From a virus (Duplodnaviria > Heunggongvirae > Uroviricota > Caudoviricetes): 34,209 bases of DNA. The notes beneath the pieces were generated by a model. That model saw only the letters and a list, made by a program, of their open reading frames with translations. It was not told the DNA's origin and made no database searches. Positions 12,914 to 31,711 of the stretch are shown here, piece by piece. The translations under genes were made by a program, and so were the position numbers. Each line of letters opens with the position of its first letter. The stretch's first letter is position 1. The DNA lies in IMG/VR virus record IMGVR_UViG_2648501321_000004; one strand, 5' to 3'.

Positions 12914-13125
12914 CAGAACCTCGCCAGCCGGTACCCGGGATGCCCACGTCGTCGTGTAATCAGAGCCGCAAGGCGGCGCTCCCACTCCTGCCGCCCCTGC
13001 CGGATCTCAGATAAGTTTTCCATGGTCATCTGCTGACCATTAAAAGTGACGGATTTTCCGTCCAGCACCGCCATTTCAGCTTCCGTATAACGCTGAATCA
13101 TGGCTTCAATATCATTCTGATTCAT
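12913..13125 (-). CDS. W: Head-tail joining protein W
   Basis: 70 aa, MNQNDIEAMIQRYTEAEMAVLDGKSVTFNGQQMTMENLSEI..RRRGHPGYRLARF, resembling lambda gpW (68 aa). ATG at 13125 overlaps the terminase stop (ATGA) with GGAGG upstream. Confidence 0.75.
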   Translation of the reverse strand: MNQNDIEAMIQRYTEAEMAVLDGKSVTFNGQQMTMENLSEIRQGRQEWERRLAALITRRRGHPGYRLARF

Positions 13126-15221
13126 AACCATCCTCCGGAAGTCAGCCAGGGGTTAACATCGTCAGTTACTGTTTTCTTCCGTTTTTGTTTTTTAACAGGC
13201 GTGGATACCGGTTCCGGTGAGGGTGACGGTTCGGTACTGTCCGGGACACACTCCAGCCAGGTTTCCCGGCTCGCCCACTCCGGTGCATCCGGCCAGCGGA
13301 TCTTTTCGTATCCATGCAGAATGACCAGAGCCTCGGCATACACCATCAGGTCAAAAGCTTCGTTGGCACCGCGACCCGGCTTACTCCATTTCCCGTCACT
13401 GCTCCGCTCTTCATACGTCAGTTCGTCGTAAAACCAGCTCCCCAGCCAGTCAGGGAAATGCACATAGCCGGGACCTGGCGAGTTACGCCATAACGCGTTA
13501 TTCACCCGGTCTTTCAGGGCATCCGTCTGAAGAAGCCAGAGCGGCACATCACCTGCGGCCTGCGCCCGTCGGCCCGTTCGTCCGGTGTTATCAGGGAATG
13601 TACGGCTGATCAGTTTTGCGCGCCGGATGCTGTCGCCCTTAAACAGGTAAATACGTTTACCAAGGCCATCACGACGGCAACGACGCCAGAATTTATAGGC
13701 ATTATCAGTGACCCCGTCTTCACCGCCGGAGTCCACCGCCATTGCCATAAGTCGCATTTGTTGAGAAGGATCGGAGGCCAGCGGCCAGCTTTTATGAAAA
13801 ACATCCGTCAGCAGGACATCCCAGTCTTCCGGATAGCTGGCCGGATCAATTCGCTGGCTCTCCCCGTCGCAGTCACTGCGCAATGACTGCGTGATGTTGT
13901 AACGATCAATAATCCAGCGTTCGCCACGACTGCCATAGCCTGTTACCTGAACCACAAAACGGCGATGACGTCCCGCCTGCACATCCACTGTCGCCACAAG
14001 GAAATTAACGCCATCCGGCACACTGCGGGAAGGAACTGGCTCTGCCCGCTGCTCAAGCAGTTCACTTTTTCGTTGCTCCATGTTGGCACGAGGAAGATAA
14101 GGCAATCCCCAGTCGGTGTTGATAACCGCCCTGAGTGTTTCTTCGCTTCCTGTCGCTTCATACTCCTGTTCTGCAGTCAGTAATTTGTAAACCAGTTGCG
14201 CCCAGGTCTGATACGCAGCAGCTGGCCCTTCCATCCAGAAACTGGCGATACGGGAGCGGCGCGGTTCACCGGAAACGTTGCCGTTACGATCAATGACCTG
14301 ACCTTCACGCAACCAGACTCCTGCACTATTGAGCTCACGCTTTTTCTCCGCAGTGATAATGCCGCTGCAGTGCGGGCAAAGTAGATACGCCGCCTCACTG
14401 GCTTTAAAGGGATCCGGTTCATTACGGTAGCCGGTCATGGCATCCATGGCTGGCTGAAAATATTCACCGCAGTGCGGACATGGCCAGTACCAGCGGCGGC
14501 GGTCACCACGATTGTAAAGGGAAAGAATACCAGTCGTCGGTGGCGCTTCATGAGGCGACTTACGTCGCCATTTGCTGTCGCAGATGTCACGTCCCGGCGA
14601 GCTCTCCACCAGAGTCATCCCGGCGGACATAAATGTGGTGGTACGTTTTGAGGCCAGGGAGAAACCATCACCCTCGCTGTCGATATTCTCCGGAAAACGG
14701 TCGTAATCGGTTAAGGCGACAAACCGGTAATCCGACGACGACATAATGTTGACCGAGGGCCAACCAATTTTAAGGAACGAGCCATCCCTGAACGTCTTAT
14801 CATGAACATTATTGTCGTTACGACGTGGACTCATTCTTTTCTTTACCGCCGCACTGCTTCTGAACGTTCTGTCGAGGCGCTTTTTAGAATGCTCGCGGGC
14901 CTTATCTTCGGTCATCTGCACAACGAGCATGTCCGAAGGATCGCAAACGATGGTATAGACAATCCATCCATCGATCAGACCAATGGTCTTCCCTGTTCGC
15001 GCAGGACCAACAAAAATCACCGCATCGTATTCACGCGATGCCAGGCAGTTCATGGGCTCAATGATGTAGGGTGTCAGTTCAGGATCCCATGGCACCGAGT
15101 TACCAGCCCCCTTGGGAACACGCATGAATTTTTTAACAGCCTCCGAAATCGGCATGCGACGTGGTGGGGAAAATCCTGCCGATATGTCCCTTCCCAAATT
15201 TCGGGCTGATGAAAAACCCAT
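13122..15221 (-). CDS. A: Terminase large subunit (lambda gpA family)
   Basis: 699-aa ORF directly after Nu1, with a strong AGGAGG Shine-Dalgarno 6 nt upstream of the ATG; size and position match lambda gpA. Confidence 0.9.
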   Translation of the reverse strand: MGFSSARNLGRDISAGFSPPRRMPISEAVKKFMRVPKGAGNSVPWDPELTPYIIEPMNCLASREYDAVIFVGPARTGKTIGLIDGWIVYTIVCDPSDMLVVQMTEDKAREHSKKRLDRTFRSSAAVKKRMSPRRNDNNVHDKTFRDGSFLKIGWPSVNIMSSSDYRFVALTDYDRFPENIDSEGDGFSLASKRTTTFMSAGMTLVESSPGRDICDSKWRRKSPHEAPPTTGILSLYNRGDRRRWYWPCPHCGEYFQPAMDAMTGYRNEPDPFKASEAAYLLCPHCSGIITAEKKRELNSAGVWLREGQVIDRNGNVSGEPRRSRIASFWMEGPAAAYQTWAQLVYKLLTAEQEYEATGSEETLRAVINTDWGLPYLPRANMEQRKSELLEQRAEPVPSRSVPDGVNFLVATVDVQAGRHRRFVVQVTGYGSRGERWIIDRYNITQSLRSDCDGESQRIDPASYPEDWDVLLTDVFHKSWPLASDPSQQMRLMAMAVDSGGEDGVTDNAYKFWRRCRRDGLGKRIYLFKGDSIRRAKLISRTFPDNTGRTGRRAQAAGDVPLWLLQTDALKDRVNNALWRNSPGPGYVHFPDWLGSWFYDELTYEERSSDGKWSKPGRGANEAFDLMVYAEALVILHGYEKIRWPDAPEWASRETWLECVPDSTEPSPSPEPVSTPVKKQKRKKTVTDDVNPWLTSGGWL

Positions 15222-16802: not shown

Positions 16803-17246
16803 TCATCTTACACACTGCGTGCGAATGTATTGCTGCAAGCCTCGGATCATTTTATCACTGGTTTCAATCCGCTTTCTAAGGGTGAAATAATCCCGTTGAG
16901 CGGTGTCAGTAAGTCTGGGGCTGGTGCCATCATCCACGCCGGAGGCGGCGGTGATTTTATGCATGTCTGGACAGACAGCTTTGACGCGCAGCCACTTACG
17001 CCCAGCAGAAACATCAGCACGAAGACTTTCGATAGTCGCGTTAGCATCAGCAAGCTCCTTTGTGTATCTGGCGTCGAGTTCTGCTACATCACGTTGACGC
17101 TTCTGCATATCAGCGATAGTGGATGCGGCTTTGTCGCGCTGCTCTTTGTAGGCGATGGCGTTATCACGGTAATGATTAACAGCCCATAACAGGCAGACGA
17201 TGATGCAGATAATCAGAGCGGAGATAATCGCGGTTACTCTGCTCAT
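16803..17246 (-). CDS. Rz: Spanin inner-membrane subunit Rz
   Basis: [34 protein letters not shown]... matches lambda Rz closely; ATG at 17246 overlaps the R stop (ATGA). Confidence 0.85.
16847..17047 (-). CDS. Rz1: Spanin outer-membrane lipoprotein Rz1, embedded in Rz in another frame
   Basis: [23 protein letters not shown]... has a lipobox (LLGVSGC) and a PPPPAW proline-rich segment like lambda Rz1; AGGAG upstream of the ATG at 17047. Confidence 0.8.
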
Positions 17247-17740
17247 TGCTGCCCCCACAAACAGACTTCACGCTCAATCTCACGACGAGTCATCAGGCCT
17301 TTCCATTGCTTACCGCCAGCGTATATCCAGCGACGTAGCTGGTCACATGCGCCTTTGATATCGCCCTGGTTTATTTTGCGAAGAAGCGTCGATGTTCTGA
17401 AATTGCCAGCACCCACGTTGTAGACGAACGAGTAAAGAGCGCCGCGCGTTGTTTCCGGTATATCGACTTTGATGTACGGGTTAATTTGTCTGGCAACCGT
17501 GGCAAGGTCTTTATTCAGGAGGGCTTTGCATTCTGCTTCGGTATACGTTTTACCGAGCATGATGTCTTTTCCGGTGTGTCCGTGACATACAGTCCATACG
17601 CCAACGATATCTTTGTATGGTATGTAGCTGACACCTTCCAGGCCATCGTCACCACTTGGGCCAGTGATTAACACTGATGCTATAGCAATTGCTCCGCCAC
17701 CAATAGCAGCAGCAACAGCTTTTCGTAATGATGGAGGCAT
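17243..17740 (-). CDS. R: SAR endolysin (phage-21 R21-type lysozyme)
   Basis: 165 aa with a Gly/Ala-rich N-terminal signal-anchor-release segment ([20 protein letters not shown]); near-identical to phage 21 R as recalled. ATG overlaps the holin stop. Confidence 0.9.
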
Positions 17741-17955
17741 TATCCACCTCTCGCAGCCTTGCGCTTATCTTCTTTAATCTTGAAATAAAGGTTTGTCAGG
17801 TACGTCAGCAGGCCAAATACCAGACTACCCAGCACACCTATTGCCGCCCACTGTGAGGGCGTGACTTTATCGAGCAACTGTAAAAACCAGTACCCGGCAC
17901 TACCTGCTGAGGTGCCATAGGCGACACCCGTTGTTAACTTATCCATGGATTTCAT
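17740..17955 (-). CDS. S: Pinholin S (phage-21 type) with dual-start motif MKSMDK
   Basis: From ATG 17955: [71 protein letters not shown], two TM segments; second start at 17946 would give the shorter holin form. GAGGTGG Shine-Dalgarno. Confidence 0.85.
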
Positions 17956-18022
17956 AACCCCACCTCGCAGATGCGGGTGCTGTGTAATGGAAATAAAAAG
18001 GCCACCTGACGTGGCCACCAGA

Positions 18023-19075
18023 TTATTTCCCCACCAGCTCGTTTATCTCTTTCACTGTCTGGTTAAACCGCTCTGACTCAAGCTCAACACCTAAGGCCCG
18101 ACGCCCCAGCGCCATTGCTGCTTTTATTGTGGAACCGGATCCCATAAAAAAATCAGCAACCAGATCACCAGGTCGACTACTGGCATTGATTATTTGCCTG
18201 AGCATATCCGCCGGTTTCTCACACGGATGTTTACCCGGGTAGAACTGAACGGGTTTATGCATCCAGACATCGGTATAAGGCACGGAGACTGATACGGAGA
18301 AATAGCGCCGGAGAGATTTAAACTCATCCAGCAATTCAGAATATTTGCGATTCAGTGAATCATAAGATGCCACCAGCTGGTGGTGTGGTTGTTCCAGTTG
18401 TTGTTCCTGAAACTTCTCTGCCGCTATACGGGAAAACAGTGCCTGTAACTTCCGATAGTCAGCCTCATTCGGCAACTGCCACTGACTGGCACCAAACCAG
18501 TGGGAAACCATATTTTTCTTACCTGTGGCTTCGGCAATTTGTTTTGCCGTTATACCCAGTTCGGCACGAGCATCCCTGAAATACGATATCAGCGGTGCCA
18601 TTATGTGCTGTTTGAGTTCCCTTTCTTTTGCCGCATAGCCGTCACTTTTGCCGCGATATGGCCCCTGGTAATGTTCAGCAAACAGAACGCGCTCTGTGGC
18701 AGGAAAATATGCGCGCAGACTTTCTTTATTACACCCATTCCAACGTCCGGACGGCTTCGCCCAGATGATATGGTTAAGCACGTTGAAACGTTCACGCATC
18801 ATGATCTCAATATCAGATGCCAGGCGATGCCCACAGAACAGGTAAAGGCTTCCGGCAGGTTTTAACACCCGCCAGAACTGGGCCAGACAGTGGTCCAGCC
18901 ACTTAAGGTAATCTTCGTCCCCTTTCCACTGATTGTCCCAGCCGTTGGGTTTCACCTTGAAGTACGGCGGATCGGTAACAATCAGGTCAATGGAATCATC
19001 AGGCAGGGACTGAATAAAATGCAGGCAATCAGCGTTGATTAAATCAACACTGTTTATTTTTACAGTATTTTTCAT
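18023..19075 (-). CDS. DNA N6-adenine methyltransferase (DPPY motif), orphan
   Basis: 350 aa with a DPPY catalytic motif (LIVTDPPYF) and SAM-binding-like segments; no adjacent restriction endonuclease gene. Confidence 0.8.
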
Positions 19076-19224
19076 GGATCAGTAAGCGTAACTCTGGTAG
19101 GCTCACTCTGCTTTTGCGCTAAAGCAGTGGGCCGTGGTTCGCTTGTGACCAGTAAGCATGAGCGAATGGCTGGCAGGTGCTACCAACACCCACCAGCCGC
19201 CCATTTTCACAAATTAAAAGTCCT

Positions 19225-19443
19225 TCATAGCTGAAGGCGTCTGTAACAGCCGAACTGGTAATCTGCCAGCCCCGCCATAACCAACTGGGTCAGTATTAAC
19301 TGACAGCGTTCGCGTGAAAGATATGTGTTTTGTGCAATCTCCCCGACTGTTGCCGGTTCGATGCTTAATTCATTAAAAACAACTTTCGCCGTTTCTGTCA
19401 TATCTTGCTGTTTTAGCATGTCTTTTTTCCTTCTGGTTAACAT
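19225..19443 (-). CDS. Small hypothetical protein, possibly winged-helix DNA-binding
   Basis: 72-aa ORF at the head of the late operon; start uncertain (ATGs at 19443, 19419, 19401). A hairpin CCTTCA-TAGC-TGAAGG overlaps its stop. Confidence 0.4.
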   Translation of the reverse strand: MLTRRKKDMLKQQDMTETAKVVFNELSIEPATVGEIAQNTYLSRERCQLILTQLVMAGLADYQFGCYRRLQL

Positions 19444-19540
19444 GACATACCAATAACTCTTGTCTAAAAAGCCAGCAAGATAAAAAGCCAGTATTCACGA
19501 CCACCAGCGTGTTTACTGTACTGCACAAGGTTTACAGGTA

Positions 19541-19563
19541 CAAAAAAACCGCTCAGCGGCGGG
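19541..19563 (-). terminator. Candidate tR-prime-like terminator at the start of the late operon
   Basis: Minus strand reads CCCGCCGCTGAGCGG followed by TTTTTTT; short GC stem, so marginal. Confidence 0.35.
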
Positions 19564-19684
19564 TTTAAGTTGTGTGGCGAAGTAACCACTCTTAACACGA
19601 TATAATACTTTTTGCGTACGCGTTAGGATTTTTATAAACTATGCGTCCCCATTCTCGCTATCTTTAGTCGGTCCTGGAATACAC

Positions 19685-20611
19685 ATGAAAGTTAGAAGCA
19701 TAGGATTTACAATAAATAACAATAACAAAAATATTAATACCGTTGACGTAATGAATGCTTTTATCAACGCATCAAACAGAGAACACAGTCGCACAGACTA
19801 TACTCGTAAAATTCTCATTTCGGATGTGAATGATTTCTATTATGGATTAGTTGTCACATTCAGAAACCAAAAAAAGAACTGTAAGTCGCAATTTGTTGAT
19901 GGTAAATTCCAGCTTAAAATTGAAGATCTTCAAGGAAGTGACAAACTTGCTAATTTCAACTTTTTCTTAATTAAAAAATCTAATCTTTCTGGTCTCTATA
20001 TGTATCACCACGGTTCATGCAGTCTGAACACTCTCTTTTCTCATTTAGAAACAATAAGTAATGAATTTATCAGAAATCAAAATAAAGAAGAAATAAAAAA
20101 ACTTGGTGATAAACCAAAACAAAAAGAAGTAACTGCAATAAATAAAAAATACAAAGAAAGACTGACTTTCAGCCTTATGACAAATAAAAACAACATTCAG
20201 AGTGTTTTATGTCAATTCAAAGAGATTAAAAGCACAAGCTTTAAATTTAATTATATAGATTTTAAAGGTGGACCAATGACTGCGCTTGAACAATTTGTTA
20301 ACACCACCACAATAGATATGAATTTTAATTCTAGCGACAGAACAAAAGTGCAACAACTATCTCAGAATCTTTCAAATATTTATAATTCTATGAGTGGAGT
20401 TACTAAAGCACAGGTTATTGCAGTAAACCATGCAGGAATAGAAAAAACCATTGATTTTATGAACTGCCCTGTTTTTTTTGAAACATACGATTTCGATATA
20501 ATTGCCGATAAAGTCAATGGATTGACAAACGATAATTATACAACAAACTCTGTTTTTGATATGATAAAAGAAGAAATGCTGAACGGGACGAATAAAAATG
20601 CCTTTATATGA
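19685..20611 (+). CDS. Cassette gene A: 308-aa soluble Asn/Lys-rich protein of unknown function (candidate sensor/effector of a defence-like module)
   Basis: Long ORF in a strongly AT-rich island on the strand opposite all flanking phage genes; no TM segment; no family recognised. Confidence 0.7.
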   Translation: MKVRSIGFTINNNNKNINTVDVMNAFINASNREHSRTDYTRKILISDVNDFYYGLVVTFRNQKKNCKSQFVDGKFQLKIEDLQGSDKLANFNFFLIKKSNLSGLYMYHHGSCSLNTLFSHLETISNEFIRNQNKEEIKKLGDKPKQKEVTAINKKYKERLTFSLMTNKNNIQSVLCQFKEIKSTSFKFNYIDFKGGPMTALEQFVNTTTIDMNFNSSDRTKVQQLSQNLSNIYNSMSGVTKAQVIAVNHAGIEKTIDFMNCPVFFETYDFDIIADKVNGLTNDNYTTNSVFDMIKEEMLNGTNKNAFI

Positions 20612-21146
20612 ATGGCTAATAAATAAAAGATTGAGGTATCAGTACCTTACACTGCTTGCATTCTCGATCCTGGCATTGCTTGCACTTTACCTATTGTACA
20701 GAAACACACCTAAAGTAAGTGTTAACTTTTTTGATTTTTATCATAAAAACTTACGAGGCTATCTCTTCTCCGGTTTTATTTCCGTGGGCTCATTTTTATT
20801 GAGCCTGCATACCTTTGTCATAATAAATTTACGCGATAAGGTTTTTGCAACTCAGGAATATAAGGAAATTTATAGCATTGCCACTGGTATACCTATTGAC
20901 AAAATCAATGATAGTGTACTTTATAAACCTTTAGACAATTTATCCTCATTTATTAATACATCAATATTATGTTCTATCACAACAGCAATTGCACAATTCA
21001 CTATTGGACTTTCAACTAATTTATATGCATGCTTATTTTGCGTATGGCTTGCAATACTAACGGTATTTCTTTTATTACATTGCCTCATCATAATCAGACA
21101 AAATATTAAAATCTTATTAAAGCAACAGAGAAAAAAAGGGGGGTAA
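20598..21146 (+). CDS. Cassette gene B: 182-aa integral membrane protein with about four TM helices (candidate membrane effector)
   Basis: Hydrophobic segments YLTLLAFSILALLALYLLY, LFSGFISVGSFLLSLHTFVIINL, ILCSITTAIAQFTIGL and LYACLFCVWLAILTVFLLLHCLIII; start overlaps the gene A stop by 14 nt. Confidence 0.7.
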   Translation: MPLYEWLINKRLRYQYLTLLAFSILALLALYLLYRNTPKVSVNFFDFYHKNLRGYLFSGFISVGSFLLSLHTFVIINLRDKVFATQEYKEIYSIATGIPIDKINDSVLYKPLDNLSSFINTSILCSITTAIAQFTIGLSTNLYACLFCVWLAILTVFLLLHCLIIIRQNIKILLKQQRKKGG

Positions 21147-21153
21147 TTCCCCC
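21131..21153 (-). terminator. Rho-independent terminator after Q, shared by the convergent cassette
   Basis: GGGGGG-TAATT-CCCCC hairpin; on the minus strand it is followed by TTTTTTT directly after the Q stop. The cassette gene B stop lies inside the loop. Confidence 0.6.
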
Positions 21154-21158
21154 TAATA

Positions 21159-21500
21159 TTACAACATTGAAAGCACACCATCCAGAAAACCAAGAGCTGT
21201 TTGCAACTCTTTTCTTATTGTCCCATCAGAACACTTCTGCTTCTTTGCAATAGTTCTTAGTGAGATGCCGATAACAAAATGAGCAATAACCAACTCATAC
21301 TCTTCGGGCTTATATTTCCGCAATCGCGCAACACAGCTGTCAATCATGATTCCTTCATCATCATCGCATTGTTGGCGTGTTTTCTTTCCATGAGGTAGTA
21401 AACCTTTAAACCCTGCAGCAACAGGCTGCCAGTCCACACCACTGTTATCTGCTGCAGCCCATGCACCCCAGCGGTCCAATACTTCATACATATCACGCAT
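21159..21500 (-). CDS. Q: Late-gene antiterminator Q (short Q family)
   Basis: MRDMYEVLDRWGAWAAADNSGVDWQPVAAGFKGL...QCDDD...CSDG... matches the conserved pattern of short Q proteins of lambdoid prophages. ATG at 21500 has GGAG 9 nt upstream; track start at 21515 is a GTG. Confidence 0.75.
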   Translation of the reverse strand: MRDMYEVLDRWGAWAAADNSGVDWQPVAAGFKGLLPHGKKTRQQCDDDEGIMIDSCVARLRKYKPEEYELVIAHFVIGISLRTIAKKQKCSDGTIRKELQTALGFLDGVLSML

Positions 21501-21517
21501 CAACTTTCTCCACAAAA

Positions 21518-22513
21518 TCAGGCCAGCACGCCAATTGCCAGTGCACGATCGATAAAACGAAATATCAGCTCCAGCTGGGAGCCATACTTCTCTTCAAATG
21601 CCACGGTATCCGCATGCAGCTCGTCGTGATGCTTTCTGCACAAAGGCAACACAAAGAGGTCATGCGCTTTTGTAGCCATTCCACCCTGACCGTGACCTAT
21701 CAGGTGGTGGGGATCATCAGCAGGTTTTCCACAACATGCGCACGGCTGCGTCTTAACCCATCGCGTGTACTTTTCATTAACCCAGCGGCGACGTTTGGGG
21801 CGTAACATAAAAGACTCCGGCGACTCCGGCTCCACTTTCAGCGCCAGCACCTTTTTCGCCTTATCCTGGATGATGCTGGTGGCAGGAACCGAAGGCACAA
21901 GGTCACTTTCCCGGGTAACAGACGGCACAACAGGCTTCGGTAATCTCAGTGCCTTACGGGCTGCACTTTCCGGTAAGGCATCCGCCAGATCATTACGAAT
22001 CAGCCACCAGCACAGTTCCGGCATTGTCACAACATGACTGTCATCAAAACCGAGATCCCGACGCACAACAGACAACACCCAGCGGGCACTGTTATCCGTT
22101 GCCATTGATTCCAGCCGTTCCGTGAACTGATCGCGCAGCTGGTTATCGCAGTGCCAGCACAAACGGATTGCGCCCGGAGCGTGTCGCATTGTTGTCATGT
22201 TCTCGCTGTGCCAGTCGGTATGAGGCCACTGGCAGCCCTTTTCACGAAGTAACCAGCTTTCAAGACATTCCACGCCACCAGCACGACGGATCACTGCCTC
22301 ATTGCGGAACACGGCCCGAACGGCAGGATCATCCGCCAGCGGTTGTGATGCCGCCGGAACGGCGCCACTGGCGAAAGATGAATAACTTTCCGGCTCAGGC
22401 TCCAGCAGGACACGCCCCTGCATAAACAGGGGCATCAGCTCTGAACCAGGCCTGAACAATACGATCCCCATACGCGGGGCAATTTCAGGGGTCAGTAGTG
22501 CTCTCACGGTCAC
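21518..22513 (-). CDS. DUF968-like nin-region protein with C-terminal Cys/His (HNH-like) motif
   Basis: 331 aa ending in CACCGKPADDPHHLIGHGQGG...CRKHHDELH; typical position upstream of Q. Start is a GTG (alternative ATG at 22471). Confidence 0.65.
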   Translation of the reverse strand: MTVRALLTPEIAPRMGIVLFRPGSELMPLFMQGRVLLEPEPESYSSFASGAVPAASQPLADDPAVRAVFRNEAVIRRAGGVECLESWLLREKGCQWPHTDWHSENMTTMRHAPGAIRLCWHCDNQLRDQFTERLESMATDNSARWVLSVVRRDLGFDDSHVVTMPELCWWLIRNDLADALPESAARKALRLPKPVVPSVTRESDLVPSVPATSIIQDKAKKVLALKVEPESPESFMLRPKRRRWVNEKYTRWVKTQPCACCGKPADDPHHLIGHGQGGMATKAHDLFVLPLCRKHHDELHADTVAFEEKYGSQLELIFRFIDRALAIGVLA

Positions 22514-22514
22514 C

Positions 22515-23324
22515 TCAATGAACGGTATCGAGCAGCTTTAACAGCTCAGTGAATCGGGATTCGAAGAAATGCGGCTGCGTCTCGCGCGGATTTGCAGGAC
22601 TGGTGATGTTCTTGCCGAACATGCAGCCTTTCGCCGTCAGCGACCAGAATTTTTTGATGTTGTTAATCGCTGTACGGCTGTATCGTTCGCGCTGTTCGAC
22701 GATCCCCAGCTTCGCCATCTGGTGATATGCCTGATTAGCCGTCAGGCGGATACCATACTGCTTCAGCAGTGCACTCAGTGACAGCGTGGGGCGGCTTGAG
22801 CCATCAGGCGCGTCAGCAGGAGCATCAATGGCATAACGCGGTGCCAGATTCGGTAAGCCAACAGCCTCCTGGAGTTTCTGACAGGCCCCAAGCACAGATG
22901 AGTTAGACAGATTTAACTCCCGGCGCATAAAGTCCAGCAGAATCACGCCAGCCTGCATCTTGTCAGCAGCCTGTCCGGATAACTTTTCCGGCGCGCTGGT
23001 TACCATATCGAAAGTACGGATCACCTTCAGATGGAATGACGGGCTGATCCACATTGCATAGGCATACACCAGTTCCTTACAGACATACGTTCCCCGTTCA
23101 TTTCCCCCATGAATCACACTCACCGGGTCAACACCCAAATTCTGGGTGTTGATTAATTCATGAACAAGATCAATAGTTTGTTGGCTGGAAAGAAACTTTC
23201 CTGGCTCCTTGGTTCTGGCATTTGCACCAGATGCTACTGCTGCGCGATGCAGATCGTTCAGGCTGTAACGCTCATAAGCATCACGACGAACTTCAATACC
23301 ATCAATGACCATCAGATTATTCAT
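22515..23324 (-). CDS. KilA-N domain protein (antirepressor/Roi-like)
   Basis: N-terminus MNNLMVIDGIEVRRDAYERYSLNDLHRAAVASG fits the KilA-N pattern; GAGGAG Shine-Dalgarno upstream. Confidence 0.7.
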   Translation of the reverse strand: MNNLMVIDGIEVRRDAYERYSLNDLHRAAVASGANARTKEPGKFLSSQQTIDLVHELINTQNLGVDPVSVIHGGNERGTYVCKELVYAYAMWISPSFHLKVIRTFDMVTSAPEKLSGQAADKMQAGVILLDFMRRELNLSNSSVLGACQKLQEAVGLPNLAPRYAIDAPADAPDGSSRPTLSLSALLKQYGIRLTANQAYHQMAKLGIVEQRERYSRTAINNIKKFWSLTAKGCMFGKNITSPANPRETQPHFFESRFTELLKLLDTVH

Positions 23325-23343
23325 ACTTCGTTTCTCCTCTTAA

Positions 23344-23733
23344 TCAGGCAGCTGCACCCGCCGTTTTCTCGTACTTACTGATAGTGATCTCGACCTTCCC
23401 TTCCGGGATAACCGGTCCCCACTCCACCAGCATTCTTTTCACCTGACTGTCGTCTTCCCACACCCCCGCGTGGGTCAGGGCGTCAAACAGCGCCTTGTTA
23501 TAGTTGTCCAGATCGCGGATCCTGTTATCCGGAGGAAACAACACGATCTCCACTGAAGCAGGTGCCGACGTTGGTTTCGGCAGACGACGTAACTGCTCAA
23601 CTATTGCTGCGCACGCCGCGCTCTGGAATTTTCGCCCCGCCGCGCTTATCAGGCTCTTACCAGCAAACGCCCCTTTGTTGGGGTGTCGCCAGTACGTGTT
23701 CACGCTGGGCGGAAAAGGCAGGATCAGCTTCAT
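23344..23733 (-). CDS. rusA: Holliday junction resolvase RusA
   Basis: 129 aa with RusA-like motifs (LPFPPSVNTYWRH..., RDLDNYNKALFDALTHAGVWEDDSQV). Confidence 0.85.
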   Translation of the reverse strand: MKLILPFPPSVNTYWRHPNKGAFAGKSLISAAGRKFQSAACAAIVEQLRRLPKPTSAPASVEIVLFPPDNRIRDLDNYNKALFDALTHAGVWEDDSQVKRMLVEWGPVIPEGKVEITISKYEKTAGAAA

Positions 23734-24056
23734 ACTTTCAGGCCCCTCTCATGTAACCAGTGGGTTGCACGCAGCCTTGCGTTTTCCTCACCGGCAAGCA
23801 GTGAGCGGATAATCCCGACCGCCTCGCTGTCGTCGTCCTTCACCGCGGTATGAAGCGTGATGCCCCGGGCCACGCCACGCTTTATCGTGATGACGCCTTT
23901 TTTCTCCAGTGCGCGAAGATGCTCCACCGCTGCATTCACTGAACGGTATCCCAGCATGGTTGCCACCTCCTGATTGGTTGGCGGGAAGCCACGTTCTTTC
24001 TGATAAGAAATCAGCATATCCAGCACCTGCTGCTGGCATTGAGTTAACGTCGTCAT
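23730..24056 (-). CDS. LexA N-terminal DNA-binding-domain protein lacking the S24 peptidase domain
   Basis: GFPPTNQEVATMLGYRSVNAAVEHLRALEKKGVITIKRGVARGITL resembles the LexA winged-HTH; only 108 aa. Start overlaps the RusA gene (ATGA) and the upstream stop. Confidence 0.6.
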   Translation of the reverse strand: MTTLTQCQQQVLDMLISYQKERGFPPTNQEVATMLGYRSVNAAVEHLRALEKKGVITIKRGVARGITLHTAVKDDDSEAVGIIRSLLAGEENARLRATHWLHERGLKV

Positions 24057-24706
24057 GCCGCCATCTCCCTGACCAGTTTTTCTGCCTGCTGGCGAACCTG
24101 CGCCAGAAAGGCCTCACCACATGCCTCAAGTTCATAGCGCCCGATGTAGCTGATTGCCGGTCCCTTCCAGGTCTTGTCGAAAACAGCAATAGCACCAGCG
24201 AAGAAAGCGCCTGTCGGCACCTGCTTCTCATCCTTCGGGATAAACCAGGCAGGCAGTTCAAAACCAATACGCCCGCGAATAAAAGCAATATGATCTGCAT
24301 CTTCCGGCCACCACACTTCGCTGGTGGCAGCTTTGATCAGGAAAACATAGCGCCCGCCTTTATCACGCATGGCACTGGCATGCTTCATGATGTAACGCAT
24401 GCCGGTGATGTATTGCCCCTCATGCTGACTGGCGCGGCTGTATGGGGGATTACCAAAGGCAGCACCTTTAAGCTCCGCAAGGCGTTCTGACCAGTCATGC
24501 GCCAGCGCGTTGTCTTCCGCCGTGTAATACGCAGCACATTTGGCGTTATCACCGTCAGTAAACAGATCCAGAACAAACGGGCCAAACAGAGTGTTAATTC
24601 CCCAGAAAATGTTGTCCGGCGTGCGCCACTGATCGCCCACTTCCTTCAGTTCATGGGCTGGTTTGTTCCGCAGTTCCGCCAGCGCCTGGCAATATTTATT
24701 ACTCAT
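24053..24706 (-). CDS. Phage Dam-like DNA N6-adenine methyltransferase (NPPY motif), orphan
   Basis: GNPPYS motif; ATG at 24706 overlaps the upstream stop (TAATG). No cognate nuclease nearby. Confidence 0.75.
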   Translation of the reverse strand: MSNKYCQALAELRNKPAHELKEVGDQWRTPDNIFWGINTLFGPFVLDLFTDGDNAKCAAYYTAEDNALAHDWSERLAELKGAAFGNPPYSRASQHEGQYITGMRYIMKHASAMRDKGGRYVFLIKAATSEVWWPEDADHIAFIRGRIGFELPAWFIPKDEKQVPTGAFFAGAIAVFDKTWKGPAISYIGRYELEACGEAFLAQVRQQAEKLVREMAA

Positions 24707-25194
24707 TAAGCCCCCACGTAATTCCCTGAGAGATACCACTCTTCACCTGATGCAGCCCGCTTACTGCTTTTCCGTAAACACCGTTCACGACGCGCCAGAA
24801 AATTGTTTCGTTCTGGCTGGGAGTGGCTTTCACGGAATGCCGCCATCCACACCGTTGCAGCACGACGGTATAAGCCCCTGGACTCCAGTTCTTCCGCCTG
24901 GCGGGTCAGGCACAAAATCACCCGCGAGTCGTTAGTGCCGACATAGAAATTGCGCACAGGTCTGGTTTCACGAACTGGTTGTGGTTCCGGATCCTGCGCT
25001 CTCTCAGTCAGGCGCGGGAAATGTCTGTGTGTATCTCCTTCACAACGGTGAGCCACACGCCCACTCTGACGTAACTTGCTTGCTGACTGCAGAACGCGCT
25101 GCCGTGAGTAACCTGCAAAAGCATCCGCAATGTCTCCGGAAGTACAGCCCGGATGGGCTTCAATGAATTTCTGAACGTCATTCAAAAGACTCAT
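24706..25194 (-). CDS. PerC-family-like transcriptional regulator (tentative)
   Basis: Motif AEELESRGLYRRAATVWMAAF resembles the PerC/Pch signature; ATG at 25194 preceded by GGGGGTG. Confidence 0.45.
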   Translation of the reverse strand: MSLLNDVQKFIEAHPGCTSGDIADAFAGYSRQRVLQSASKLRQSGRVAHRCEGDTHRHFPRLTERAQDPEPQPVRETRPVRNFYVGTNDSRVILCLTRQAEELESRGLYRRAATVWMAAFRESHSQPERNNFLARRERCLRKSSKRAASGEEWYLSGNYVGA

Positions 25195-25196
25195 GA

Positions 25197-26138
25197 TCAC
25201 CCCCTGAATCCTGCCGGGATCTGGCTGTAGTCCACGTTGTCGTAACTGGCTTTGAAGTACGGGTCTTCACGTTTTTCTGTGTGCGTGCTGACGGACGGCG
25301 ATAAGCGCAGGGAAAGCTCATCCCATTTTTCCCGCAACTTCGACGGGCTGAGCACGTTACGGCACCAGAACGGATCGCGGCTGACGCGGCTGTACATCTC
25401 GCAGATTTGTTTGTGAGTACGACCATCCTGCACACACATCAGGCGAATTTCGTTTGCCCATGCTGTCCAGTTCGGTTCTTTGGGACGAACCACCTCGCCG
25501 TCACATTCGGCGGCCTGCTCGTACAGGGCAATGATTTTTTTCCAGAGCCACTGTGCGCAGGTCAAATCATCCTGCGTTCCCCACTGGCGCTTTTTAGGGC
25601 TGAATACAACCGCATCAGGATGGCGAGTTAAAAAATCCTGTTCAGCCGTCTGCGTGTCCGGTTGCGAAGCGTCCGGACGAGAAGGTTTTTTATCTGACGG
25701 ATCATGTTTTGATTTTACTGACGGATCCCCGCCAGATTCTGACGGGTGAAAACCCGCTTTTTTGCCAGATTTCGACGCATCAAATTTTGACGTGTCAGAT
25801 TTTGATGCGTCAGATTTTGACGGGTCAGAATCTGACAGTTGAGAAAATGCCGCTGCCTGAAGCTTCGCAACGTTAAGCTGATAAACATTCGACGCATTGC
25901 GGTTACCCTGGCGACGCGCCTTACGCGTTAACCAGCCTTCTGCTTCCAGCCGTGCGATAGCCGTTCTGACGGTACTCATCCCCGCGCCAATCTGACGGGC
26001 AATAGTTTCAATTGATGGCCAGCACACACCTTCGTCATTACTGAAATCAGCCAGGCGGGCCATAATTGCCACGCTGGATAATTTCATGCCTGACGCAGCG
26101 CAACCATCCCATACATAGCCGGTTAATTTAGTGCTCAT
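25197..26138 (-). CDS. Replication initiation protein (O-like, N-terminal HTH) containing internal iterons
   Basis: 313 aa with an N-terminal HTH-like region and a central SDPSKSDASKSDTSKFDASKSG repeat encoded by the iteron array; GAGGT Shine-Dalgarno. Confidence 0.7.
   Translation of the reverse strand: MSTKLTGYVWDGCAASGMKLSSVAIMARLADFSNDEGVCWPSIETIARQIGAGMSTVRTAIARLEAEGWLTRKARRQGNRNASNVYQLNVAKLQAAAFSQLSDSDPSKSDASKSDTSKFDASKSGKKAGFHPSESGGDPSVKSKHDPSDKKPSRPDASQPDTQTAEQDFLTRHPDAVVFSPKKRQWGTQDDLTCAQWLWKKIIALYEQAAECDGEVVRPKEPNWTAWANEIRLMCVQDGRTHKQICEMYSRVSRDPFWCRNVLSPSKLREKWDELSLRLSPSVSTHTEKREDPYFKASYDNVDYSQIPAGFRG
25686..25841. repeat. Iteron array, about 8 direct copies of a 15-bp unit (consensus AGATTTTGACGNGTC); candidate replication origin
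   Basis: Four exactly 15-bp-periodic copies at 25767..25826 flanked by degenerate copies; lies inside the replication gene as lambda ori lies inside O. Confidence 0.65.
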
Positions 26139-26147
26139 GACCGACCT

Positions 26148-26486
26148 CTATTTCCCTGAATTTACGACGAAACTGTTCGAGCGGGCTGAAGCACTCATGC
26201 TCATAGCCTTCACGGAGGTAGATAACCCGTTGTGTTTCCGGCTCCCAACGAATGACTCTGACGGGCACTCCGTAGTGATCTTTGAACCAGCGGTTAACTT
26301 GTCGCAAAGGACTGTCTCCTTCTGCCGGTTGAAATCCCCCACAGCCCACTCAGCAAAGCTGTGGGTTACAATTTCCCTGTCACCTGGTACATTTACTGCA
26401 TAGCAATACTCCACCTTCGCTTTTCCACCCGGTACAGGAAGCGCAATCAGTTGCGAGCGACGGTAGTGTGTTGTTAAACTGTTCAT
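26148..26486 (-). CDS. Hypothetical protein; probably frameshifted relative to overlapping ORF 26128..26349
   Basis: N-terminal half ([40 protein letters not shown]...) looks protein-like, but the 3-prime half is low-complexity while the other frame encodes a protein-like C-terminus. Confidence 0.4.
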
Positions 26487-27040
26487 GCGTTAGTTTCTCC
26501 ACAACCAGAAGCAATCGACGCCACGACGCCCGGAGCTGCACACTCGCGGGCGTCATTACTTTCTGAAACGCAAAAAATTTTGTAGACAAGTGCTGCATGC
26601 TCCTGCAGCTTCGAAATTGAGAGGTACAGCTCGTCGTTAATTGCTGTCTTCTCATGCGGTTCCACTACACCGTCTTCGATTGCCGAACGAATCTGTTTTG
26701 AATAACTGCCGATCTGTTCAATGACTTCCAGTAAACGCTGGTTAATATCGGCATTGTCCACATCCTCGACGTCAGGAAGAGACACAAAGACGCCATTTGC
26801 AGACTGCGCCACAGCGTCGGCAATGAAGTGAGTGCCACCAGCACGTTGTAAAATCATTGCCCATCCCAGCGGGAAAATCTGATCGCCATCGGCACGAAGG
26901 CGGTTAAATAATGCGTTCTCTGTTACATCCAGCCACTCAGCAGCTTCAGCGTAACCCCCCGGCAACGCCGCGATAGTTTTTCTGACAGCTTTCACGTACC
27001 ACTCAGGCTGTTTTTCCACTTTCCAGTGATGATTACCCAC
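26483..27040 (-). CDS. CII-like / YdaT-family regulatory protein (tentative)
   Basis: 185-aa ORF immediately downstream of cro and overlapping it by 8 nt; GTG start with AGGAGG 6 nt upstream. Family assignment is from memory. Confidence 0.45.
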
Positions 27041-27293
27041 GGCTTACCTCCTGTTCCTGTGGTTTAAACCCATTCTGGTTTTGGCTAGATTGAAAACGTG
27101 CCGGATAAAGAATCTGCATTTCGCTGATTTCATCCTTAAAAAAATTGGCCAGACGTTCTGCAAGATCGATAGATGGAATTTGTTCCAGTCTTTCAATACG
27201 ACTCAGCGTCGCTGGATTGACCTGAACGCCAGCAGCAACATGCTGCAAAGTAAATCCGTGCGCCTTACGCACATTCCGTAATGGTGATTGCAT
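27033..27293 (-). CDS. cro: Cro-like HTH repressor
   Basis: 86 aa, HTH segment GFTLQHVAAGVQVNPATLSRIE; divergent from cI across a 97-bp operator region; GGAGG Shine-Dalgarno. Confidence 0.75.
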   Translation of the reverse strand: MQSPLRNVRKAHGFTLQHVAAGVQVNPATLSRIERLEQIPSIDLAERLANFFKDEISEMQILYPARFQSSQNQNGFKPQEQEVSRG

Positions 27294-27390: not shown

Positions 27391-28083
27391 ATGAACATAG
27401 GAAACCGAGTCAGACAACTTCGCCAGGCGAAGAACATGAAAATCGCCGATCTCGCTGAAGCAATAGGAGTGGATGCGGCGAATATCTCACGCCTGGAAAC
27501 AGGTAAGCAGAAACAATTCACTGAACAAGCCCTGAGTAATATTGCCAGGAGCTTAGGTGTTGATATTGCTGATCTCTTTACCTCAGACGTCAAAAGTAAT
27601 ACTGTATGTAAAAACAGTATTAGTGAGGATGTTGCGCAGGTGAAGGATGTATTCCGTATTGAAATGCTGGATGTCAGTGCCAGTGCGGGAAATGGCCTTA
27701 TCCAGGGCGGTGATGTCATTGATGTGATTCATGCCATTGAATACAGAACTGATAATGCTGTATCGATGTTTGGCGGACGGCCAGCCAATCACATTAAAGT
27801 TATCAACGTTCGTGGGGACAGTATGTGTCCAACCATTGAGCCAGGAGATCTCATCTTCGTTGATGTCAGTATCAATCAGTTTGATGGAGATGGTATCTAT
27901 GTATTTGGTTTTGATGATAAAATTTATGTCAAACGACTGCAAATGATACCTGACAAACTACTGGTGATTTCTGATAACCAGATTTACCGTGAATGGGGAA
28001 TTACCAGCGAAAATGAACACCGGTTTATGGTCTTTGGAAAGGTCTTAATCAGCCAGTCACAAACCCTTAAGCGACACAATTAA
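27391..28083 (+). CDS. cI: CI-type prophage repressor (HTH plus S24 LexA-like peptidase domain)
   Basis: N-terminal HTH (MKIADLAEAIGVDAANISRLETGKQ) and C-terminal autocleavage domain with GDSM serine motif and VKR lysine motif. Confidence 0.9.
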   Translation: MNIGNRVRQLRQAKNMKIADLAEAIGVDAANISRLETGKQKQFTEQALSNIARSLGVDIADLFTSDVKSNTVCKNSISEDVAQVKDVFRIEMLDVSASAGNGLIQGGDVIDVIHAIEYRTDNAVSMFGGRPANHIKVINVRGDSMCPTIEPGDLIFVDVSINQFDGDGIYVFGFDDKIYVKRLQMIPDKLLVISDNQIYREWGITSENEHRFMVFGKVLISQSQTLKRHN

Positions 28084-28200: not shown

Positions 28201-28602
28201 ACAAACAAACAAGGTACTAACAAAATTTGGTTGTAACACGGCGTATGGCACATGCGTCGTTAGCGGTCTGGGGACGTTAAAGGGGACAATCCACTCCTTG
28301 CTCGGGCAAACAAACCAGGTAGCCGGAATGTGCAAGTCAATGATGATGCTGATAAGACGCCTAACCAGCGTGGCGATTCGGTTTGACGCCTGGGAAGAGA
28401 CCAGGGTGCAACGATGAGGGCATTTATGGAGCCGCGACAAAGTGTGGTGCCGTAACTGGCTAAGTGCTCTCAGCGTTGTGGTAATCCGCGAAATGGCGCG
28501 GCGGTAAGTATGGCGGGGTTACTATTTCCCCGTTGAGGACACCGGATTGTCAGGTTGACCATACGCCTGAGTGACAACCCCACCACAACAGCCACTGCTT
28601 TG

Positions 28603-28648
28603 GCGGTACCAGTTTGTACCCTTGCTTCCGGCTGGTACCGCTCTTTTT
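28603..28648 (+). terminator. Strong hairpin plus T-run inside the non-coding leader upstream of the early-left operon
   Basis: Perfect 10-bp stem GCGGTACCAG/CTGGTACCGC with a 19-nt loop followed by TCTTTTT; overlaps a boxA-like CGCTCTTTTTAC. Confidence 0.5.
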
Positions 28649-28785
28649 ACAAAACAGAGAAAAGCATCACCGGACGACGGGCTCATAACCCAATCCATCC
28701 GGGCGGCAGTCACCGCAGGTGTTCTTCTCTGTTTTGTGGAGAAACCAACCGACCTTGCAGGGTCGATATGATGAGGAGCAGCAAA

Positions 28786-29148
28786 ATGGCTAGCGAACGC
28801 AGTACTGATGTGCAGGCATTTATCGGGGAGCTGGACGGCGGCGTATTTGAAACCAAAATCGGCGCAGTTCTCAGTGAAGTCGCTTCAGGTGTGATGAACA
28901 CGAAAACCAAAGGTAAGGTCTCACTCAACCTGGAAATCGAACCATTTGATGAGAACCGTGTGAAAATCAAACACAAACTCTCATATGTTCGCCCGACTAA
29001 CCGCGGGAAAATTTCCGAAGAAGACACCACCGAAACGCCGATGTATGTCAATCGCGGTGGTCGCCTGACTATTCTGCAGGAAGACCAGGGACAATTACTG
29101 ACTCTTGCCGGTGAACCTGACGGAAAACTCCGCGCAGCAGGTCATTAA
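28786..29148 (+). CDS. yfdP: YfdP-like hypothetical protein (120 aa)
   Basis: ATG at 28786 with AGGAG upstream; first of five co-oriented genes whose lengths (120, 274, 178, 120, 101 aa) match the CPS-53 yfdP-yfdT series as recalled. Confidence 0.55.
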   Translation: MASERSTDVQAFIGELDGGVFETKIGAVLSEVASGVMNTKTKGKVSLNLEIEPFDENRVKIKHKLSYVRPTNRGKISEEDTTETPMYVNRGGRLTILQEDQGQLLTLAGEPDGKLRAAGH

Positions 29149-29213
29149 TATCGTTCTTAATTAACCGATTATTTATCTCATCACTGAATATCTTTATATA
29201 GTGAGGACTTATT

Positions 29214-30038
29214 ATGTCTCAGAACTTAGACGCAACCGCAATTAATCAAATCCATGCCCTTATTTCTGCTCAGGGTGTTAATGAAATTATCAGTAAGATT
29301 GGTGCCGATGCTGTGGCATTGCCTGAGAATTTCCGCATTCATGATCTGGAAAAATTTAATTTAAATCGCTTCCGTTTCCGTGGTGCGCTTTCCACTGCCA
29401 GCATCGATGACTTTACCCGTTATTCTAAAGATCTTGCAGATGAAGGCACCCGCTGCTTTATCGATGCCGATAATATGCGAGCAGTCAGTGTGCTTAACCT
29501 GGGTACTATTGATGAACCAGGTCACGCAGATAACACCGCCACTCTCAAACTGAAAAAGACAGCACCGTTCTCTGCCCTGTTGTCTGTTAACAGCGAGCGT
29601 AACTCCCAGAAGTCACTGGCAGAATGGATTGAAGACTGGGCCGACTACCTTGTGGGCTTTGATGCTAATGGTGACGCTATTCAGGCAACAAAAGCGGCTG
29701 CGGCGGTCCGTAAAATCACGATTGAAGCAAACCAGACCGCTGATTTTGAAGATAATGACTTCAGCGGCAAACGCTCCCTGATGGAGTCTGTCGAAGCGAA
29801 GACCAAAGATATTATGCCAGTGGCATTTGAATTTAAATGCGTTCCGTTTGAAGGTCTGAAAGAACGTCCATTTAAATTACGCCTCAGCATTATCACTGGC
29901 GATCGTCCGGTACTGGTTCTGCGCATTATTCAGCTGGAAGCGGTGCAGGAAGATATGGCTAACGAATTTCGTGATCTGTTTGTTGAGAAATTCAAAGACA
30001 GCAAAGTAGAAACCTTTATTGGTACTTTCACCGCCTGA
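29214..30038 (+). CDS. yfdQ: YfdQ-like protein (DUF2303 family, 274 aa)
   Basis: 274-aa ORF with GAGGA Shine-Dalgarno; size and neighbourhood match YfdQ. Confidence 0.65.
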
Positions 30039-30166
30039 TTTCATTACTGCAAATGCCCCTGCGGGGGCATTTATGGAAACGTAATTGACTCAATAATCGC
30101 CGGATGGTGCGGGATTCCTTTTACCCGAATTCAGCGCGGTGCAGCGCATATAAAGTGGAGAACGAA

Positions 30167-30703
30167 ATGTCATTTATTAAAACTTTTTCCGGGAAGCATT
30201 TTTATTATGACAAGATAAATAAAGACGACATCGTTATTAACGATATCGCGGTTTCCCTTTCAAATATCTGTCGCTTTGCAGGACATCTTTCACACTTCTA
30301 CAGCGTCGCCCAACATGCGGTTCTTTGCAGCCAGCTGGTGCCGCATGAATTTGCTTTTGAAGCGTTAATGCATGATGCAACAGAAGCGTATTGCCAGGAC
30401 ATTCCCGCACCACTGAAACGACTTCTTCCTGACTATAAACGGATGGAAGAAAAAATAGACGCCGTAATCCGTGAGAAATACGGGTTACCTCCTGTTATGA
30501 GCACGCCAGTGAAATATGCCGATCTCATTATGCTGGCAACCGAACGCCGCGATCTCGGGCTTGATGATGGCTCTTTCTGGCCTGTGCTGGAAGGTATCCC
30601 GGCAACAGAGATGTTCAACGTGATTCCACTGGCTCCAGGCCATGCCTACGGGATGTTTATGGAACGCTTTAACGAATTATCGGAGTTACGCAAATGCGCA
30701 TGA
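30167..30703 (+). CDS. yfdR: HD-domain phosphohydrolase (YfdR-like 5-prime-deoxynucleotidase, 178 aa)
   Basis: HD-domain residues visible (VAQHAV..., ALMHDATEAYCQD); GTGGAG Shine-Dalgarno 6 nt before the ATG at 30167. Confidence 0.7.
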   Translation: MSFIKTFSGKHFYYDKINKDDIVINDIAVSLSNICRFAGHLSHFYSVAQHAVLCSQLVPHEFAFEALMHDATEAYCQDIPAPLKRLLPDYKRMEEKIDAVIREKYGLPPVMSTPVKYADLIMLATERRDLGLDDGSFWPVLEGIPATEMFNVIPLAPGHAYGMFMERFNELSELRKCA

Positions 30704-31361: not shown

Positions 31362-31711
31362 TGGAGCCATACAGCCTCACACTCGATGAGGCCTGTCATT
31401 TTCTCAAGATATCCAGACCGACTGCCATTAACTGGATACGCACAGGGCGTCTTCAGGCAACACGCAAAGATCCCACTAAGAATAAATCTCCTTACCTCAC
31501 AACACGACAAGCCTGCATTGCGGCTCTTCAGTCTCCGCTGCATACTGTCCAGGTGAGCGCGGGTGATGGCATAACAGAGGAAAGAAAATGTCACTCTTCC
31601 GCAGAGGTGAAATATGGTACGCCAGTTTCACATTGCCGAACGGTAAAAGATTTAAACAGTCTCTTGGAACAAAGGACAAAAGGCAGGCGACAGAACTCCA
31701 TGACAAGCTAA
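31361..31711 (+). CDS. xis: Excisionase (P22 Xis-like, 116 aa)
   Basis: 116-aa ORF ([31 protein letters not shown]...) immediately upstream of and overlapping int; start overlaps the yfdT stop (TAATG). Confidence 0.65.

Follow-up and report, generated by a model that had tools for sequence, protein, structure and literature searches.

Why would a temperate phage carry two adenine methylases without a restriction enzyme, and how would such enzymes be kept harmless to their host? This question is raised by a stretch of 34,209 nucleotides (nt) from the IMG/VR virus record IMGVR_UViG_2648501321_000004 (Caudoviricetes), whose full length is called the window here. Its minus strand carries a lambdoid prophage with two genes for N6-adenine methyltransferases, methylase A in the late operon and methylase B in the early-right operon. 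On the basis of our analysis, we consider it about 78% probable that they are the methylase pair of phage SfV, in which A would act late and without a target motif, B would act early as a GATC-specific Dam, and a structured leader RNA would limit or time the synthesis of A. The pair itself is ordinary and already known; the leader is the only new item in this analysis.

Identity of the two methylases

Both open reading frames (ORFs) had been located exactly in an initial annotation made from the letters of the sequence, which also placed A just upstream of the holin gene and B in the nin-type region. Methylase A matched the family PF01555 (coordinates and scores of all features are given in Table 1), and its DPPY (residues 35–38) and FMGSG (residues 310–314) motifs stand in the order of beta-class enzymes. 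Solved structures of that class could be aligned with residues 9–115 and 282–335 and not with the centre of the protein. In phage cdtI an identical protein (100%) is annotated as 'putative DNA methylase', SfV orf48 is 98% identical to A, and PADLOC and PHROGs classified it merely as a type II or DNA methyltransferase. Comparison with M.EcoGII revealed a close relationship, with 81% identity over the full length. By region, identity was 89% for the catalytic part at the N-terminus, 77% for the recognition domain of helix-turn-helix type (residues 160–237) and 76% for the C-terminal part. Identity to Anc291, a reconstructed ancestral variant, reached 89%. It should be noted that the M.EcoGII and Anc291 sequences were taken as machine-read text from Supplementary Table S1 of PMC11551740, and a few reading errors in them mean that the true identities to A are slightly higher.

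The biochemistry of this family is well documented. M.EcoGII methylates adenine in any context in double-stranded DNA, single-stranded DNA and RNA, is silent in its lysogen, was harmful to cells in which constitutive expression was tried, and made DNA resistant to 12 of 12 restriction enzymes tested (PMC5778455). It is described as toxic if artificially expressed in an EcoSal review, which groups it with Mu Mom among modifying enzymes that temperate phages express on induction (PMC12707154). In strain EC958, no methylation signal came from a 99% identical homologue of M.EcoGI, which appeared to be inactive when examined by reverse transcription PCR (PMC4659465). M.EcoGI and M.EcoGII homologues at about 93% similarity were classed as non-specific in a study of O111 Shiga toxin-producing Escherichia coli (PMC6602927), and the SUPREM paper describes M.EcoGII and its variants as largely non-sequence-specific; there, Anc291 was purified, tested for methylation of DNA and RNA (Table S3) and was among the enzymes in a nanopore analysis of sequence context (PMC11551740). 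Because of its homology to this family, A most likely has no target motif and would methylate adenine in any context.

The initial annotation had treated the DPPY enzyme as an ordinary motif-specific methylase, to be characterized by assigning target motifs in the lysogen, and would have taken the absence of a new motif as refutation. Since the family is motif-less, assignment of a target motif would be the wrong experiment, and the proposed refutation would be misleading. A false negative would be expected because the homologues of M.EcoGI and M.EcoGII are silent in lysogens and B likely writes GATC methylation that host Dam has already written. Lysogen methylome screens will therefore miss both genes, and 'no motif' should not be read as 'inactive'.

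Methylase B scored 153.6 bits against PF05869 (cutoff 28.1) and 252.9 bits against TIGR01712 (phage_N6A_met, the NCBI equivalog 'phage N-6-adenine-methyltransferase'; cutoff 97.05), with its catalytic NPPY at residues 86–89. In SfV, the gene annotated 'dam: DNA adenine methylase' encodes a protein with 98% identity to B. The open frame extends to a GTG at 24739; RefSeq and SfV place the start at the ATG at 24706. The gene lies between the replication genes and RusA/Q, that is, in the nin-equivalent region. SfV carries annotated −35/−10 signals inside orf40 in a region that is 96% conserved here, yet no promoter could be found upstream of B in a consensus scan. Taken with the overlap of the B start with the preceding stop codon (ATGA), this suggests that B is most likely made from the early-right transcript; its translation seems to be coupled to that of the PerC-like gene upstream.

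M.EcoVT2Dam (VT2-Sakai orf32), a PF05869 member, is reported to target GATC (PMC6602927). B most likely also methylates GATC, the same target as host Dam. A prophage of Atlantibacter (locus L012, 9802..10626) has a non-homologous Dam-type gene of family PF02086 in the slot of B, in the order PerC-like gene, methylase, LexA-N-like gene and RusA. This gene looks like a functional replacement, and its presence in the same slot suggests that an early Dam-type activity is itself selected for. Experiments in the SfV genome paper (Allison et al. 2002, J Bacteriol 184:1974) reportedly confirmed that the SfV dam gene encodes a Dam methylase. We rejected the idea that B is a non-specific methylase of the Hia5/Hin1523 type, as that family is classical-Dam-like and does not belong to PF05869. 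The RefSeq records of mEp460 (L004, NC_019716, 7408..8061), SfV and cdtI name the homologues of B 'phosphoadenosine phosphosulfate reductase', which looks like a propagated mis-annotation, apparently derived from the fused-protein family phrog_33262.

The initial annotation had also claimed that neither gene has a cognate restriction enzyme, which agreed with our domain scan: no restriction-endonuclease domain was found either next to the methylases or among the other ORFs of the window that were scanned. In a type II restriction–modification system the cognate endonuclease gene lies beside the methylase. Here the neighbours of A are the holin gene essD and a small ORF of 72 amino acids (aa), and those of B are the PerC-family gene yfdN and a LexA-N-terminal-like gene. 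A DUF968 protein with a weak HNH-nuclease signature is encoded next to Q; this is a common nin-region gene, and there was no sign that it is a restriction partner. Judged from their sequences, A and B are intact orphan N6-adenine methyltransferases.

A structured leader RNA upstream of methylase A

No Shine–Dalgarno sequence is present before the ATG of methylase A. By using five aligned family members to query one genome from each species, we collected 80 Enterobacterales loci with methylases 63–93% identical to A. In most of them about 136 nt before the ATG were conserved and showed clear compensatory changes. Forty-one distinct leaders were aligned with MAFFT without regard to structure, nested helices were predicted from the alignment by RNAalifold, and a model of five helices (P0–P4), including a pseudoknot, was then tested. 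In this 41-sequence alignment, 91.2% of the cells contained a standard pair, compared with 27–40% when the partners were slid by 1–3 columns. Pairs that had changed on both sides numbered 15 (4–9 in the slid controls) and cells changed on both sides numbered 55 (4–19 in the controls), and for all five measures none of 500 shuffles equalled the observed value. Covariation was found in nine of ten pairs of P1, and one pair of P2 was C-G in 24 sequences, A-U in 5, U-A in 5 and U-G in 2. From its G-U pairs, the structure can be assigned to the sense strand of the methylase gene. The leader of the window folded to −56.9 kcal/mol (z = −3.1 versus shuffles). We therefore take the structure as real.

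A covariance model of the leader (R1) gave one match per locus, always abutting the start codon of the methylase; the match in the window (19064..19211) scored 165.7 bits. The model also found leaders outside its training set, in phage Stx2_EH2246 (124.6 bits), Yersinia ruckeri (108.8 bits), Klebsiella phage 48ST307 (67.8 bits) and Vibrio phage VHML (55.6 bits, E-value 4e-12). In VHML the sequence of P1 is entirely different yet paired, and the methylase that follows the leader in Stx2_EH2246 is 94% identical to M.EcoGII. In an alignment of 65 distinct sequences fitted to the model, which is biased to the model's structure by construction, 17 of 27 pairs changed on both sides. In addition, a 23-nt core of the leader was searched in viral contigs, and a methylase began 30–120 nt downstream of it in 78 of the 80 loci found. 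Of the remaining two loci, one was at a contig end; in the other (L192, 7612..9895) what remains is the small ORF with the 5′ portion of the leader, followed by an esterase-like ORF of 682 aa that has apparently replaced the methylase through recombination. Scanning of viral contigs for close relatives gave only copies 99–100% identical, which were of no use for covariation. From E. coli to VHML, the leader was found only upstream of this methylase family in the sequence searched. The methylase coding sequence of Klebsiella phage 48ST307 (L006, 2363..3562) is annotated about 140 nt too early, through the leader (covariance-model match 2367..2512); its true start is probably near 2501.

Several other identities for the leader were considered. 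A small protein-coding ORF was ruled out, as one-base indels in the loops shift the reading frame between loci. A known RNA family was ruled out by searches of Rfam 15, in which no family matched the leader at the gathering threshold and relaxation to an E-value of 5 gave only chance matches elsewhere in the stretch scanned (Vault, E-value 0.73; sR16, E-value 3). A text search with the core sequence gave no relevant match. An invariant GATC before the ATG might be taken as a Dam regulatory site; RNA pairing fits better, and the P4 pair at this position is G-U or A-U, with G-C in a Klebsiella phage. The idea that the small ORF activates the leader, in the manner of Com and Mom, was weakened by the finding that neither type of small ORF was detected in 26 of the 80 loci; most of these keep the leader, so such activation is unlikely as a general rule.

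The most economical role for the leader would be translational control of a harmful enzyme, because P4 occludes the bases beside the ATG and no ribosome-binding sequence is present. We give an even chance to the stronger proposal that it represents an undescribed class of cis-regulatory RNA gating translation of a toxic, motif-less methylase. The gating might work through binding of the methylase, whose family acts on RNA, in an autoregulatory loop, or through sensing of a small molecule such as S-adenosylmethionine or S-adenosylhomocysteine.

Organization of the late operon

On the minus strand the order is Q, a strong hairpin, an inserted plus-strand cassette, the block of the putative promoter pR′, two hairpins, the small ORF, the leader, methylase A, a hairpin and the holin gene, from which A is separated by 67 nt. 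Terminator-like sites were over-represented in the stretch scanned (17 versus 3.9 expected). The pR′ block (19625..19572) is conserved in Stx2_EH2246, where it starts about 10 nt past a 58%-identical Q gene, and in a Yersinia ruckeri prophage, and is not conserved in SfV, whose Q is unrelated; homology to SfV starts exactly at the tR′ hairpin. Conservation of the block thus tracks the type of Q, the pattern expected if pR′ and the Q-utilization (qut) site travel with their own Q and if tR′, the small ORF, the methylase and the terminator form a separate exchangeable module behind them.

The same module order was observed in SfV, mEp460 and vB_EcoS-569R4. Stx2_EH2246 has Q, the small ORF, the methylase, three tRNAs and stx2AB, and in VHML a 48%-identical methylase is followed by ORF18, an endolysin gene and terminase genes. 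Among the 80 genome loci, a homologue of the small ORF stands upstream of the methylase in 52, an essD-like holin gene follows the methylase in 17, and many others have small membrane-type ORFs there. An equivalent of the hairpin at 19222..19237 stands before the leader in most related loci. The small ORF itself has a weak winged-helix resemblance (matches to DprA_WH and TrmB, both under the Pfam cutoff). In Y. ruckeri (L009, about 4420..4660) and in locus L107, the small ORF before the leader encodes a Cys-rich, zinc-ribbon-like protein instead of the winged-helix-like orf47 type, and is reminiscent of Mu Com. Late, Q-dependent expression of A is well supported by this anatomy, and the operon assignments of the initial annotation (A late, B early-right) proved right by gene order and comparison.

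Table 1 Coordinates of the methylases, the leader RNA and other features of the window, with the evidence for each
Feature	Position	Strand	Evidence or remark
Methylase A, M.EcoGII-family beta-class N6-adenine methyltransferase, 350 aa	18023..19075	−	PF01555 N6_N4_Mtase, E-value 2.2e-42
Structured 5′ leader RNA, 136 nt, helices P0–P4	19076..19211	−	Covariation and covariance model; abuts A
Helix P0	Alignment columns 8–11 with 53–56		Crosses P2 as pseudoknot
Helix P1	Alignment columns 14–24 with 36–46
Helix P2	Alignment columns 48–52 with 74–78		Crosses P0
Helix P3	Alignment columns 84–96 with 104–119
Helix P4	Alignment columns 66–70 with 139–143		Stops two bases short of the ATG
Methylase B, SfV-type phage Dam, 217 aa	24053..24706	−	PF05869 Dam, E-value 5e-45; TIGR01712
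PerC-family yfdN, stop overlapping the start of B (ATGA)	24706..25200	−	RefSeq annotation
Holin gene essD, at the head of the lysis cassette that follows A	17740..17955	−	RefSeq annotation; 99.8%-identical E. coli 042 locus
Terminator-like hairpin and T run between A and holin	18000..18016	−	Scan; annotated terminator in SfV
Hairpin and T-rich run at the end of the small ORF, directly 5′ of the leader	19222..19237	−	Terminator-like in scan
Small ORF like SfV orf47, 72 aa, RefSeq start 19419	19225..19443	−	phrog_331, E-value 2e-35
Second hairpin beyond tR′	19487..19508	−	Scan
Putative intrinsic terminator tR′, GCCGCTGAGCGG followed by T run	19542..19560	−	Scan; terminator annotated in SfV
Putative late promoter pR′ and qut block	19572..19625	−	Conservation with phages of the same Q type; putative function
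308-aa protein	19685..20611	+	Low-GC cassette, 30–32% G+C
182-aa membrane protein	20598..21146	+	Overlaps the 308-aa gene by 14 nt
Strong hairpin after Q	21154..21137	−	Terminator scan
Antiterminator Q	21159..21500	−	PF06530, E-value 2.5e-45; RefSeq annotation
DUF968 protein, weak HNH-nuclease signature	21518..22513	−	Adjoins Q; 2.4 kb from A, 1.5 kb from B
Large terminase gene	13122..15221		Prophage landmark
cI-like repressor gene	27391..28083		Prophage landmark
Integrase gene	31588..32751		Adjoins tRNA-Thr (32766..32841)

Comparison with known systems and prevalence

The methylase pair, its two slots and the flanking terminators are already annotated in the SfV record (GenBank U82619), and the finding as first written therefore matters little. 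Both genes share 98% protein identity with those of SfV and occupy the same two slots between the same terminators, and mEp460, cdtI and vB_EcoS-569R4 have the same pair. The prophage in the window differs from SfV in its Q/pR′ module and in an extra two-gene cassette between Q and pR′. M.EcoGII and M.EcoGI, from prophages of E. coli O104:H4 C227-11 (Murray et al. 2018, PMC5778455), resemble A in being prophage-borne enzymes of about 350 aa with an N-terminal DPPY and a C-terminal FxGxG. M.EcoVT2Dam and the other PF05869 Dams share with B the Pfam family, the NPPY motif, the nin-region location and the orphan status, whereas identity between B and M.EcoVT2Dam is 31% and B is 42 residues longer.

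A functional parallel would be Mu Mom, with its Com and Dam controls, together with the Hia5/Hin1523 methylases, which take the place of Mom in Mu-like prophages. Likeness to these systems would lie in late expression, toxicity, nearly sequence-independent adenine modification, silence in the lysogen and protection of progeny DNA, and Mom is also under special translational control. However, the proteins are unrelated to A, as Mom has an acyltransferase fold and Hia5 is classical-Dam-like, and the small upstream ORF is missing from 26 of the 80 loci mentioned above, most of them still with the leader.

We also measured how common these genes are in E. coli. At a query coverage of at least 80%, A with its leader was present in 1161 of 5426 complete genomes (∼21%), with up to eight copies per genome, and B was present in 1725 of the 5426, the early gene being found in 32–39%. 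Thus, the methylase pair is ordinary in E. coli. If the leader does gate translation, this would explain how the genes stay harmless in the one-fifth or so of complete genomes that carry A.

Proposed mechanism and alternative explanations

We suggest the following sequence of events. Early in lytic growth, B would keep GATC sites methylated on fast-replicating phage DNA, or it might supply Dam activity in a host without Dam. A would be made from within the Q-antiterminated late transcript, downstream of pR′/tR′ and upstream of the holin gene, and because of this position it should be silent in the lysogen and produced only late in lytic growth. It would then methylate adenines throughout the concatemeric replicated DNA before packaging, and progeny DNA would enter the next host already protected against many adenine-sensitive enzymes of types I, II and III. 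The leader would probably limit or time translation of this toxic enzyme. Protection from restriction, which the initial annotation had put forward, is the accepted reading for the family of A (PMC5778455, PMC12707154); its benefit to this particular phage is what we infer.

Several points weigh against this proposal. A differs from M.EcoGII at 19% of residues and at 23% of positions in the recognition region, few substitutions in a recognition domain can alter specificity, and the M.EcoGII sequence used for comparison came from a machine-read supplement with a few errors. For B, the family member with the documented GATC target, M.EcoVT2Dam, is only 31% identical, and GATC occurs in the window at its expected frequency (133 observed versus 132.5 expected), neither avoided nor enriched, so that composition is uninformative. 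The promoter and the terminators were assigned by pattern matches and comparison.

It is unlikely that B has a target other than GATC or a relaxed one. That reading would fit the low identity to M.EcoVT2Dam and the nearly non-specific action of other phage methylases that replace Mom (the Hia5 family); there is no solved structure of B, and its AlphaFold model has a predicted local distance difference test score (pLDDT) of 39.5, poor because all retrievable relatives are at least 77% identical. On the other hand, the near identity of B to the SfV dam gene speaks for a Dam, and the Hia5 family represents a different lineage. For A, activity as a conventional type II orphan methylase that recognizes a defined sequence motif would agree with the class assigned by PADLOC and PHROGs and with the divergent recognition region, and appears quite improbable given the full-length identity to M.EcoGII, the still higher identity to Anc291 and the non-specific behaviour of this family and of its ∼93%-similar homologues (PMC11551740, PMC6602927).

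The remaining alternatives concern purpose. The initial annotation had considered possible epigenetic control, and gene regulation is indeed known for the orphan methylases Dam and CcrM; in Staphylococcus aureus, a prophage methylase is reported to drive adaptation. Regulation of host or prophage genes by A and B in the lysogen is nevertheless very improbable and found no support here: the late operon of A lies behind tR′ and the early-right operon of B behind the repressor, so that both would be off, the M.EcoGI and M.EcoGII homologues are silent in lysogens (PMC5778455, PMC4659465), and forced expression of M.EcoGII is harmful to cells (PMC5778455, PMC12707154). RNA has also to be weighed as the main target of A, with m6A (N6-methyladenine) placed on host or phage RNAs late in infection instead of protection of DNA. 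M.EcoGII acts on RNA and on DNA:RNA hybrids in vitro (PMC5778455), related ancestral variants have higher RNA activity (PMC11551740), and the gene of A carries its own elaborate RNA leader. This reading is scarcely probable, since the initial rate of M.EcoGII is about 90 times higher on DNA than on RNA (11.12 versus 0.12; Table S3, PMC11551740) and fully methylated DNA resists many restriction enzymes (PMC5778455). The late anti-restriction role of A and the early Dam role of B thus remain the preferred explanation.

This explanation has consequences beyond the window. As genes of the M.EcoGII type lie in the Q transcript of the lysis genes, some of them together with Shiga toxin, induction should yield virion DNA with adenine methylation throughout, which is relevant to host range and to m6A-targeting defence systems. 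The enzyme family of A is already sold as a laboratory reagent. If functional, the leader RNA would offer a handle on the question asked by the authors of M.EcoGII, namely how so harmful an enzyme is naturally controlled.

Prophage setting and the cassette between Q and pR′

The prophage in the window is related to one in E. coli 042, with matches confined to 17130..27065 (99.4% identity) and 28600..31044 (96.7% identity), the latter shifted by some 670 bp in the 042 record. The prophage is thus a mosaic, with different structural genes and a different remainder of the integration end.

Neither the 308-aa nor the 182-aa protein of the plus-strand cassette had a match in Pfam, NCBIfam or PADLOC. 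The pair occurs with the same overlap at the same site in Yersinia and Atlantibacter prophages, and in a different element in Pectobacterium. SfV, mEp460 and cdtI have the methylases without the cassette, which is thus not their partner. The AlphaFold model of the 308-aa protein (pLDDT 75.8) had its best PDB matches in RdgC, lambda RexA and CENP-N, at TM-scores (template modelling scores) of only 0.26–0.32. In humans, CENP-N corresponds to CHL4 of yeast. The RexA paper places RdgC and RexA in one fold class with IML3/CHL4, which are kinetochore proteins of yeast (PMC11077077). Profile comparison of the 308-aa protein with RexA was negative, and the cassette does not lie beside cI. A lambda Rex-type system would pair a soluble protein of the RexA/RdgC fold with an adjacently encoded small membrane protein like RexB, which has about four spans. 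The 182-aa partner has three hydrophobic stretches in a hydropathy scan, one of them long enough for two spans. From the model, a Rex-like exclusion pair is a reasonable guess, with the odds about evenly balanced. Finally, the tetranucleotide CTAG was strongly depleted in the window (5 observed versus 132 expected).

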